From assembly GCA_964595645.1 (NCBI GenBank), contig CAZQQT010000002.1, forward strand, positions 64,001-128,000: a stretch of DNA of 64,000 nucleotides, in the 5' to 3' direction. Made by a program: the position numbers and the translations under genes. Numbering within the stretch: position 1 is the stretch's first letter; the number at the start of each line of letters is the position of its first letter. Shown here piece by piece: positions 31,679-33,529 of this stretch. The DNA comes from an uncultured Thermococci archaeon. Lineage in GTDB: Archaea; Methanobacteriota_B; Thermococci; Methanofastidiosales; B48-G16. The notes beneath the pieces were generated by a model. The model was not told where the DNA came from. It saw only the letters and a list, made by a program, of their open reading frames with translations, and searched no databases.

Positions 31679-33529
31679 ATGAGAATTAGACGTGTGGGAG
31701 AGCATGCCGTTATAGAAAAAGGTAGTACTTTACTGTTGTTCAACACTATAGACTCAGGATTATACAAGATAAAACCCATTACCGAAAAATTATTCAATCT
31801 CGTACAAAAACATGGTATAGAAACCGCAAAGAAACTGATGAAGGAAGGAGATGTAGAGGACATTGCGGAAGAAAAAATTACAGAATTAACAGAAAATGGG
31901 TTTTTAGATCAAGAGCCAGATTTTACCCCTCCCACAACGTTCCCTATTACAGGCATGTCTCTCAATGTGTCTCACGACTGCAACCTCAACTGTCGGTACT
32001 GTTATGGAGGAGGCGGTACATATGTAGGAGAAAAATCTTATATGAATAAAGAAATTGGAGAAACATCTATAGATCGTTTATTAGGGTGGAGTGAAGACTG
32101 TGAAAGAATATATCTCAATTTTTTTGGTGGGGAACCGCTCTTAAATTTTTCGTTGATACAACACTTGGTGAACTACGGAAATAAGAAGGCTGAGTTAGAG
32201 GGGAAGCGCATAAAATATAGTATAACCTCCAATTGTACGCTTCTTACCGAAAAAATTATAAAATTTCTCAATGATCACAATATAAACGTCCTTGCGAGCA
32301 TGGACGGACCAAAACCTATTCAGAATACAAATCGCCCTTTTAAAAATGGAGGAGGTTCTTATGACACCATCGCGTCAAATGTACAAAAACTTTTCTCAAC
32401 GCGGAAAACTGTTACTGCACGGGCGACACTTACACGAGATTGCATATCCCTTAATACGATCATTAATGGATTAAGAAGTGTTGGATTCAAGTATATACAC
32501 ATAGAGCCAGTAACAGCCGATAATACTTGTTCATTTGCACTTTCAGAAGAAGATTTTGAAACATTAAAAAAAGAATATGAAAATGTTGGAAAAATATTTA
32601 TGGACAGTGTTTTGAGGGGCGATCCTATTGGATTTTCAAATATTCTCAGAATGATACATCGAATATACAACTCAGTTATACGGCATTATCCCTGTGGTGC
32701 CGGAAAAACGACATTCTGCAAAATAATGAACGGGCTCGTGATACCGAGTTCCGGAAATCTCTATATCGATGGGTACGAGACCATAGAGGATCACAATGAG
32801 ATCTCCAAACGAATGGTGACCGTGTTCGGAGGCGAACGGGAGATGTGGGGACTGTTCTCATGGAGGGTCCCGGTGGAGAAGAACCTCCGATATATCGCCG
32901 AGCTCTGGAAGGTACCGTCGGACTGCGTCAACGAAAGAATCGACTACGCGCTCGATATCCTCAATCTCGAAGACAAACGCACGGAATGGTACCAGAAGCT
33001 CTCGGCGGGTATGAAACAGAAGGTACATCTCGCCTTAGCATTCATCGTCCAGCCCAAGATCATCGTGTTAGATGAGCCGACGATCCGGCTGGATGTCCCC
33101 ACAAAACGACACGTCCATAAAGTTATACAAAAGGAACTGTGCGCTACGCTCGGATCCACAGTACTCCTCACAACACACGATATGCACGAAGCAGAAACGC
33201 TCTGTGATCGGGTCGCAATTCTCAATACCACAATTGAATCCATCGACAAACCCGAGAACATTAAGGAACTCTCCAAACAGTATGAAATTATGGAATTGAA
33301 ACTGAAAGAGAGCAACACAGCCCTGAAAACTGCACTGAAACCATTTGTCATGCGGATAGAGGATCGGTACCACAATGGAAAGTGGTACATGAAAATATTT
33401 TTCGAGGACAAACACACGAACCTGCCCAGGATTTTAGAGGTAGTGAAAGATGCGGTCGATGATATTCGAATGAGAACGCCCTCGTTGGAAGACGCCTTTG
33501 TCTATTTGGTGAGAGATGATGACCATTAG
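31679..33529 (+). CDS. Chimeric ORF: RRE-radical SAM (SPASM domain lost) fused in frame to an ABC ATPase (N-terminus lost)
   Basis: [17 protein letters not shown], SMDGP, then [34 protein letters not shown]. Confidence 0.88.
   Translation: [616 protein letters not shown]

Follow-up and report, generated by a model that had tools for sequence, protein, structure and literature searches.

The locus analyzed here lies in a 64,000-nucleotide (nt) stretch of DNA, the window, from an uncultured Thermococci archaeon (GTDB lineage Methanofastidiosales; B48-G16; GenBank assembly GCA_964595645.1, contig CAZQQT010000002.1, positions 64,001 to 128,000 of the forward strand). On the forward strand, positions 31679-33529 hold a single open reading frame (ORF) of 616 amino acids (aa), which stands between a divergent winged-helix-turn-helix (wHTH) regulator gene and an ABC-2 permease gene. 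In this ORF, the front of a radical S-adenosylmethionine (rSAM) maturase is joined in frame to the back of an ATP-binding cassette (ABC) ATPase of the ABC-2 type, and the join is real. The rSAM-derived part (31679..32695) is composed of an N-terminal region that may resemble the recognition element (RRE) of ribosomally made, post-translationally altered peptide (RiPP) enzymes, the CNLNCRYC motif, the barrel, and only the first cysteine of the SPASM domain. Next come four codons, GGT GCC GGA AAA (G-A-G-K; 32696..32707), which either parent could supply according to a codon comparison with seven rSAM and five ABC sequences. The ABC ATPase-derived part (32708..33529) covers the protein from the Walker A Lys-Thr-Thr onward and includes the signature motif, Walker B, the H-loop and the C-terminal domain.

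Profile searches place the limits of both parents at the shared motif. In Pfam, Radical_SAM (E 3e-12) and Fer4_12 (E 9e-9) cover residues 96-241 of the 616-aa protein and ABC_tran (E 2e-16) covers residues 339-468, spanning profile positions 20-136 only. The NCBIfam alignments to the maturase models QhpD (TIGR03906), PapB (NF047865) and SCIFF (TIGR03974) end at residue 343-346, where they break off at about position 350 of 450-467, the start of SPASM. Matches to the ABC ATPase models of NCBIfam set in at residue 338, which corresponds to model position 27-36 and to the Walker A motif. One parent's domain match ends and the other's begins precisely at the motif they share, and this was counted in favor of a microhomology join. 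In the DNA, the codons CAT TAT CCC TGT lead into GGT GCC GGA AAA and on into ACG ACA TTC TGC. YPCGAGK-N was present in 7/7 intact rSAM homologues compared by codon, and the Walker A sequence GPNGAGKTT in 5/5 ABC orthologs. Because the TGT 5' of the shared stretch is rSAM-specific and the ACG ACA TTC TGC 3' of it is ABC-specific, the crossover is confined to the 12 nt GGTGCCGGAAAA at 32696-32707. Compared with the parents, the chimera is short of about 131 SPASM residues and of about 62 at the N-terminus of the ATPase.

Base composition changes at the same point. GC content rises from 0.36 to 0.52 across the junction, and GC content at third codon positions (GC3) is 0.317 in the rSAM half and 0.611 in the ABC half, the 4th and the 97th percentile among 1144 long ORFs of the genome. 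The initial annotation had described an rSAM::ABC ATPase chimera fused at a motif common to both parents, with a shift of composition there and with the rest of the ATPase and its permease intact and in frame; the profile limits meeting at GAGK, the GC3 values and the downstream frames agree with this description, which proved right in all details open to checking.

The junction is also present in a second assembly. In an independent Logan assembly of run SRR7048220, a 63.6-kb contig encodes the exact chimeric protein and matches the window at 100% identity along 7851 bp spanning the junction. The Hef flank on one side and the flank with the Zn-ribbon gene, the major facilitator superfamily (MFS) gene and the next gene on the other are both syntenic with relatives. 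An intact allele of either parent at about 100% identity was not found in the protein collection. Among scored candidates from 5.8 billion (5.8e9) protein clusters, no second fusion was found: only the window protein spans both halves, and the next-best match (565 bits) covers the rSAM half alone. A degenerate junction pattern gave 0 matches in JGI metagenome contigs and 0 in GTDB species genomes. In these searches the architecture occurs in one genome only, and on them the chimera does not belong to a conserved family of maturase-exporter fusions.

Homology searches with each half recovered intact relatives. Among related genomes, G013 encodes the intact protein closest to the front half, an rSAM/SPASM protein of 474 aa (58% identity). 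In a large protein collection, the best ones (P0002-P0015) are 469-505 aa long, are 55-69% identical by BLASTP and up to 72% over the shared part, and are in some cases named 'SPASM domain-containing protein [Theionarchaea archaeon]'; P0002 is 69-72% identical to the rSAM-derived part. Three shorter proteins (P0026-P0028; 357-363 aa, 58-68% identity) were considered as truncated forms and rejected, as they are N-terminally cut copies with a complete SPASM. No second copy of the maturase was found in the genome of the window. In three genomes from one genus of the same order (G010, G013 and G016; 2.5-3.0 Mb), there are 27-47 separate matches to the rSAM half each, many of them adjacent pairs, and rSAM/SPASM maturase genes are very greatly expanded there.

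The CNLNCRYC motif, which is the CxxxCxxC radical SAM cluster motif, and the barrel are present in the chimera and align with the intact homologues. SPASM is gone after its first cysteine (YPCGAGK), with the loss of ~131 residues that P0002 and the G013 protein have, so the sites of the two auxiliary [4Fe-4S] clusters are absent. An intact homologue matches CteB (PDB 5WGG) with an E-value of 7e-65 over residues 67-433, and in the comparison with CteB the junction cysteine of the chimera aligns with the first SPASM cysteine. The best models for the intact homologues are QhpD, SCIFF, Nif11 and PapB. Their scores stay below every equivalog cut-off (PapB 300.5/340, the nearest; QhpD 315/453; SCIFF 304/425), as do those of the chimera (QhpD 232.6/453, PapB 210.4/340, SCIFF 205.9/425). 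By these scores, the intact homologues are best classified as an undescribed subfamily of the thioether-forming rSAM/SPASM clade. The QhpD and SCIFF models align from residues 14 and 25 of the chimera, and an AlphaFold2 (AF2) model folds the N-terminus as beta-beta-beta-alpha-alpha at low confidence (predicted local distance difference test, pLDDT, 31-50). This is consistent with an RRE-like N-terminal region; a PqqD-type Pfam match was sought in the N-terminus and none was found.

The intact maturase genes belong to RiPP clusters, which were inspected at nine loci (L025, L032-L039). L032 is a 6.1-kb ENA contig bearing P0002, the closest intact homologue. Its order is an opposite-strand wHTH gene, the rSAM/SPASM gene, two Cys-rich small ORFs and an ABC ATPase beginning MNTIETNKLTKVYKDW. 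The series of rSAM/SPASM gene, two precursors and ABC ATPase is also found in L033 (P0003) and L034/L035 (P0004, Theionarchaea), and in all of these loci a small gene or an HTH gene precedes the rSAM/SPASM gene. L034/L035 additionally have three membrane-protein genes, one with a weak ABC2_membrane_2 match. In L025 (of G013), L036/L037 and L038, the maturase is followed by two or three tandem precursors; the contig of L039 stops within the first small ORF after the rSAM/SPASM gene. The tandem precursor genes stand directly after the intact rSAM/SPASM gene (L032:5290-5697; L033:9431-9803; L034:4146-4497; L025:7945-8837; L036:6380-7107; L038:6413-6950). Their products are one family, in which a short leader, M-(E/I)-R-L-N, precedes about five C-x(2,3)-[D/E] units, as in the L036 peptide at 6440-6583. 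Precursors and maturases together look like an archaeal RiPP family of the thioether (ranthipeptide-like) kind that is uncharacterised. Genome mining has predicted ranthipeptide and sactipeptide clusters in archaea (PMC12144867), and among archaeal SPASM enzymes one that forms ranthionine crosslinks has been characterised (PMC13692751).

The genome of the window has no member of this precursor family: a hidden Markov model (HMM) of the family gave a best E-value of 0.16 against the six-frame translation of the 99.96%-complete genome, and the weak matches (E 0.16-0.7) were inspected and rejected as chance. In the intact clusters, the two G-A-G-K sites are on the same strand, 975 bp apart in L032 and 1102 bp apart in L034. 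A deletion from GAGK to GAGK in such a cluster would yield exactly the architecture seen in the chimera.

The ABC half has a different set of relatives. It is 71-75% identical to intact 340-345-aa ATPases of the same-genus genome G001 and of all four sister-genus genomes (G002-G005). The ABC-2 operon was found in 5/5 of these family relatives, in which an rSAM gene of this type is absent (best rSAM match at most 37% identity), and 4/5 hold the operon apart from any rSAM gene. Identity to the cluster-type ABC of L034 is only 33%, and in the species of G002 both kinds of ABC gene occur, each on its own: the ortholog in L022 and the cluster-type gene in L032. GC3 of the ABC gene tracks the host (0.545 in G001, 0.389 in the sister-genus genome G004 and 0.381 in the metagenome contig L042), and so does that of Hef (0.45 in G001, 0.371 in G004 and 0.338 in G005). 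Judging from these relationships, the ABC half is resident and orthologous to the ABC-2 operon of the family, and is not the RiPP cluster's own exporter. The permease gene (33516-34322, forward strand) overlaps the end of the chimeric ORF and is intact, with a Pfam ABC2_membrane match, 79-80% identity to its orthologs and a GC3 of 0.654. On Logan contigs from three samples (L042-L044), the ABC-2 ATPase/permease ortholog (73%) lies directly downstream of two other, distantly related rSAM/SPASM genes of 432 and 402 aa, which are 21-30% identical to the rSAM half of the chimera; the second of them overlaps the ATPase start by 4 nt.

The ABC half keeps the signature LSAGMKQK, the Walker B motif IIVLDEPT and the H-loop TTHDM. 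Its Walker A motif reads Y-P-C-G-A-G-K-T; in the orthologs it reads G-P-N-G-A-G-K-T and comes after EIFGLL and about 55 further residues. The P-loop pattern [AG]-x4-G-K-[ST], with its preceding strand and the A-loop aromatic residue, is not found in the chimera, whose first Walker A residue is Tyr. The lost ATPase segment aligns with ABCA3 residues ~555-595, which contain the A-loop aromatic position, two strands and the strand into the P-loop. Because the next-best ABC ATPases in the genome are only 33-36% identical to the ABC half, there is no close paralog to replace the ATPase.

The wHTH gene, the chimera and the permease gene form a 3.2-kb block (31168..34335) between the stop codon of Hef and the promoter of the Zn-ribbon gene, and this block is absent here in the sister genus. 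In G003, G004 and G005, the Zn-ribbon gene and then the MFS gene follow about 66 nt past Hef with no block between; the promoter and ribosome-binding region upstream of the Zn-ribbon gene is kept in the window. In G001 (contig C20; L031, 1700-2870), three small unannotated and unrelated ORFs (135, 151 and 89 aa) fill the same site, which seems to be an insertion hot spot. No flanking direct or inverted repeats, tRNA genes or integrase were found around the block. The MFS gene of the window (34557-35770) is divided into two overlapping ORFs of 149 aa and 268 aa in different frames, and in G005 it is a single 431-aa ORF. As the Logan contig carries the same sequence, the split is probably a real frameshift, and the gene is probably a second broken transporter gene beside the chimera.

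The wHTH gene (31186..31527, reverse strand; GC 0.357) encodes a DUF7343/MarR-like regulator (Pfam DUF7343, E 4.8e-7), is divergent from the rSAM gene, and is 35% identical (E 2e-10) to the wHTH in the same divergent position beside the L032 cluster. Between it and the rSAM gene lies a perfect 26-bp palindrome (GTGCAACTATTTA/TAAATAGTTGCAC; 31574..31599) centred on the TATA-like box TTTATAAA, which is a likely operator/promoter. The intergenic region of L032 has imperfect AT-rich inverted repeats only. A sigma-70 promoter and terminator scan, which is ill-suited to archaea, gave nothing above shuffles.

GC3 of the rSAM homologues nearest to the chimera half (L032, L033 and L034) is 0.27-0.34, and that of the more distant ones (L025, L036 and L038) is 0.40-0.49. 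Because GC3 of the rSAM half is low and donor-like, in contrast to the host-tracking ABC and Hef genes, the rSAM half and the wHTH gene are a piece of a recently imported low-GC island, joined to a resident operon. There is a direct indication that such an island moves. L032 and contig C61 of G002 (L040) share 99.5% identity along 2.5 kb, where a diphthamide synthase gene is 100% identical, and from the wHTH gene on G002 has MutS-like, DNA ligase and TraB genes in place of the island of L032. On this comparison the RiPP island (wHTH, rSAM/SPASM, precursors and ABC) is demonstrably mobile within the family, with presence/absence polymorphism at the level of strains.

Considering these results together, we judge it quite probable that the chimera is a recent microhomology-mediated recombination scar, which joins an imported island to a resident ABC-2 operon and is non-functional, rather than a new enzyme that works. 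An accessory RiPP island of low GC, with a wHTH regulator, a CteB/QhpD/PapB-like rSAM/SPASM thioether maturase and tandem Cys-rich precursors, would have entered the lineage. Illegitimate recombination over the four G-A-G-K codons would have linked it to the resident operon of the ABC-2 exporter; these codons occur in YPCGAGK, the motif of the first SPASM cysteine, as well as in GPNGAGKTT, the Walker A of the ATPase. Two routes may have led to the join. In the first, the island was inserted upstream of the operon and a later deletion took SPASM, the precursors, any transporter genes of the island and the 5' end of the resident ATPase. In the second, an incoming fragment of the island was integrated in a single step, with the microhomology as its end point. 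Deletion after insertion and one-step integration cannot be told apart, because the genes beside the ABC-2 operon vary from relative to relative (G001, G002, G003/G004, L042, L045 and L046) and the collections searched hold no genome closer than about 75% identity. The initial annotation had proposed a microhomology-mediated deletion within one RiPP cluster that possibly also removed a precursor peptide. The GAGK microhomology and the lost SPASM and ATPase N-terminus fit that proposal, and so does the missing precursor, since intact clusters of relatives carry Cys-rich precursors between the rSAM/SPASM gene and the ABC ATPase. The proposal thus stands for the larger part, and its single-cluster origin needs correction: the ABC half is that of the resident ortholog (71-75%) and not the cluster's own (33%), and a simple internal deletion of one native cluster is not supported. 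Its other proposal was a maintained maturase-exporter fusion; the uniqueness of the fusion in the protein clusters and the two contig collections argues against one that is maintained and widespread.

By either route, the product has no SPASM, and with it neither auxiliary Fe-S cluster, and no precursor genes; from the ATPase it has lost the first ~62 residues, with the strands of the N-terminus, the aromatic residue of the A-loop and the glycine that opens Walker A. Because the precursors, SPASM, the ATPase N-terminus and a replacement paralog are all missing, we infer a dead RiPP pathway; the ABC-2 exporter has probably been disabled by the loss of its engine. The age of the event was approached by a leave-one-out count of positions that are invariant in all other family members and changed in one sequence. 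This count replaced the ratio of nonsynonymous to synonymous substitution (dN/dS), which was not used because synonymous sites would be saturated: the nearest homologues have 73% nucleotide identity over ~970 bp. Invariant sites were lost at 4/119 in the rSAM half, 7/131 in the ABC half (one of them the junction residue) and 8/178 in the permease, each within the range of equally isolated intact homologues. The absence of excess decay and the un-ameliorated GC3 point to a recent fusion event.

Some observations weigh against the scar interpretation. The frames of both halves and of the permease are intact and conserved like those of working orthologs, a pattern that purifying selection on a functional chimera would give equally. 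The nearest sampled parental sequences are 69-75% identical, and the 12 nt are the length inferred from such relatives. The ABC-2 operon is located directly behind two other rSAM/SPASM genes in the one relative lineage of L042-L044, and this arrangement hints at a recurrent link between the exporter and peptides made by rSAM enzymes.

It is unlikely that the ORF encodes a maintained functional chimera, in which a SPASM-less rSAM barrel tethered to the ABC-2 ATPase couples radical chemistry to export, or in which only regulation through the HTH-controlled promoter is coupled to export. The 616 open codons with intact rSAM motifs and intact ABC motifs from the Walker A lysine on, the normal count of invariant-residue losses in both halves and the permease, the gene order of L042-L044, and the existence of fusions between processing enzymes and ABC exporters, as in peptidase-containing ABC transporters (PCATs), speak for such a protein. 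Its occurrence in one genome only and the lack of any remaining precursor argue against it, and the foreign GC3 of the rSAM half, which is un-ameliorated, argues for very recent formation. About 62 residues are gone from the N-terminus of the ATPase, and with them the A-loop aromatic and the strand that leads to the P-loop; its Walker A motif starts with Y instead of G/A. Both auxiliary-cluster sites of the rSAM enzyme are lost, and in the related archaeal SPASM enzyme CrpC a variant of the auxiliary cluster I (AuxI) is nearly inactive, with minimal SAM cleavage (PMC13692751). An AF2 model of the fusion, computed from a 44-row alignment of truncated rSAM homologues and ABC orthologs, had a mean pLDDT of 68 and a predicted template modeling score (pTM) of 0.46. 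Residues 277-341, up to the junction, had pLDDT <50, so that there is no confident structure around the junction, and the model is uninformative as to whether rSAM residues stand in for the lost ABC strand.

Arrival of the whole cassette of HTH gene, already-fused gene and permease as one mobile unit from another organism is improbable. It would account for the 3.2-kb block being inserted as a whole when compared with the sister genus, and for the different neighbors of the ABC-2 operon in every relative examined. The halves, however, are at opposite extremes of GC3 (0.32 vs 0.61-0.65), which is unexpected for a resident of a single donor, and the ABC GC3 fits the host genus. The block has none of the integrase, tRNA or flanking-repeat marks of a mobile unit that were looked for, and the same cassette was not found elsewhere in the protein clusters, the JGI metagenome contigs or the GTDB species genomes.

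We regard as a long shot a newborn working protein, in which a SPASM-less rSAM barrel under wHTH/palindrome promoter control replaces the N-terminal sheet of the ABC-2 ATPase. The same low estimate covers a weaker version, in which the resident ABC-2 operon would be a general docking and export module behind which rSAM cassettes are swapped time and again (cf. L042-L044) and the fusion a mis-registered swap. If true, the newborn protein would be the birth of a domain fusion through microhomology between two unrelated glycine-rich cofactor-binding motifs, before any sequence adaptation. An assembly or sequencing artefact that joined two real loci at a short shared sequence is hardly credible: the assembly is of metagenome type with 14 contigs and composition changes sharply at the junction, but the Logan contig of SRR7048220 is identical across it, usual assembler k-mer lengths far exceed the shared stretch of at most 12 nt, the synteny of both flanks shows that the contig is not a join of two genomes, and an intact allele of either parent is missing from the protein collection.

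The scar, as we interpret the locus, is an ordinary kind of event that is unusually well documented and resolved here. It is an unusually clean case from nature in which unrelated genes can be seen welded in frame by illegitimate recombination, over no more than a few codons that they share, with both parent types, the lost parts (SPASM, precursors and ATPase N-terminus) and the foreign origin of one half identifiable. It is also a warning for annotation: the ORF would be called 'rSAM/ABC' and the locus a RiPP cluster, although the substrate and SPASM are gone. A literature search on archaeal microhomology gene fusions found nothing specific. The intact precursor/maturase family in the relatives is the more useful biological lead; it defines an uncharacterised archaeal RiPP family on a strain-variable island in Theionarchaea-related lineages and is open to biochemical tests.

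The parent of the rSAM half resembles CteB (PDB 5WGG/5WHY; the SCIFF thioether-forming maturase), QhpD and PapB. Its intact family likewise has CxxxCxxC, a putative leader-binding-type N-terminal region and a SPASM starting with C-G-x-G. Freyrasin, the substrate of PapB, has CX3D repeats, and QhpD makes Cys-Asp/Glu thioethers; the approximately five C-x(2,3)-[D/E] units of the precursors recall both. Unlike these systems, the intact homologues fall below the equivalog cut-offs, and the copy in the window has no SPASM past the first Cys and no substrate gene. The parent of the ABC half resembles ABC-2/DrrA-type (ABCA-like) subunits, TM0544 (1VPL, 4YER) and the nucleotide-binding domains (NBDs) of ABCA3: alignments of the intact orthologs to ABCA1/3/4 and to 4YER/1VPL extend over the NBD. 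Like this type, the window copy keeps the signature, Walker B, H-loop, C-terminal domain and an adjoining ABC-2 permease; unlike it, the copy lacks about 62 N-terminal residues and has Y, not G, as the first Walker A residue.

PCATs (LahT/PCAT1) are RiPP processing enzymes naturally fused to exporters, and the chimera is similar to them in having a peptide-maturation enzyme domain and an ABC exporter component on one polypeptide. PCAT fusions are widespread and consist of complete domains, connected via linkers and fused to a membrane/NBD half-transporter, whereas in the chimera each partner is cut within a domain and no more than one genome was found with the fusion. A further likeness is to chimeric genes made by microhomology-mediated end joining (MMEJ) or other microhomology deletions, in which likewise a short identical stretch (here at most 12 nt) forms the junction, the frame is kept and intervening or foreign material is lost. 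The chimera differs from the usual cases in that its microhomology is provided by two unrelated glycine-rich motifs, the first SPASM cysteine motif and the P-loop, and in that the join falls at the border of an island gained by horizontal transfer.

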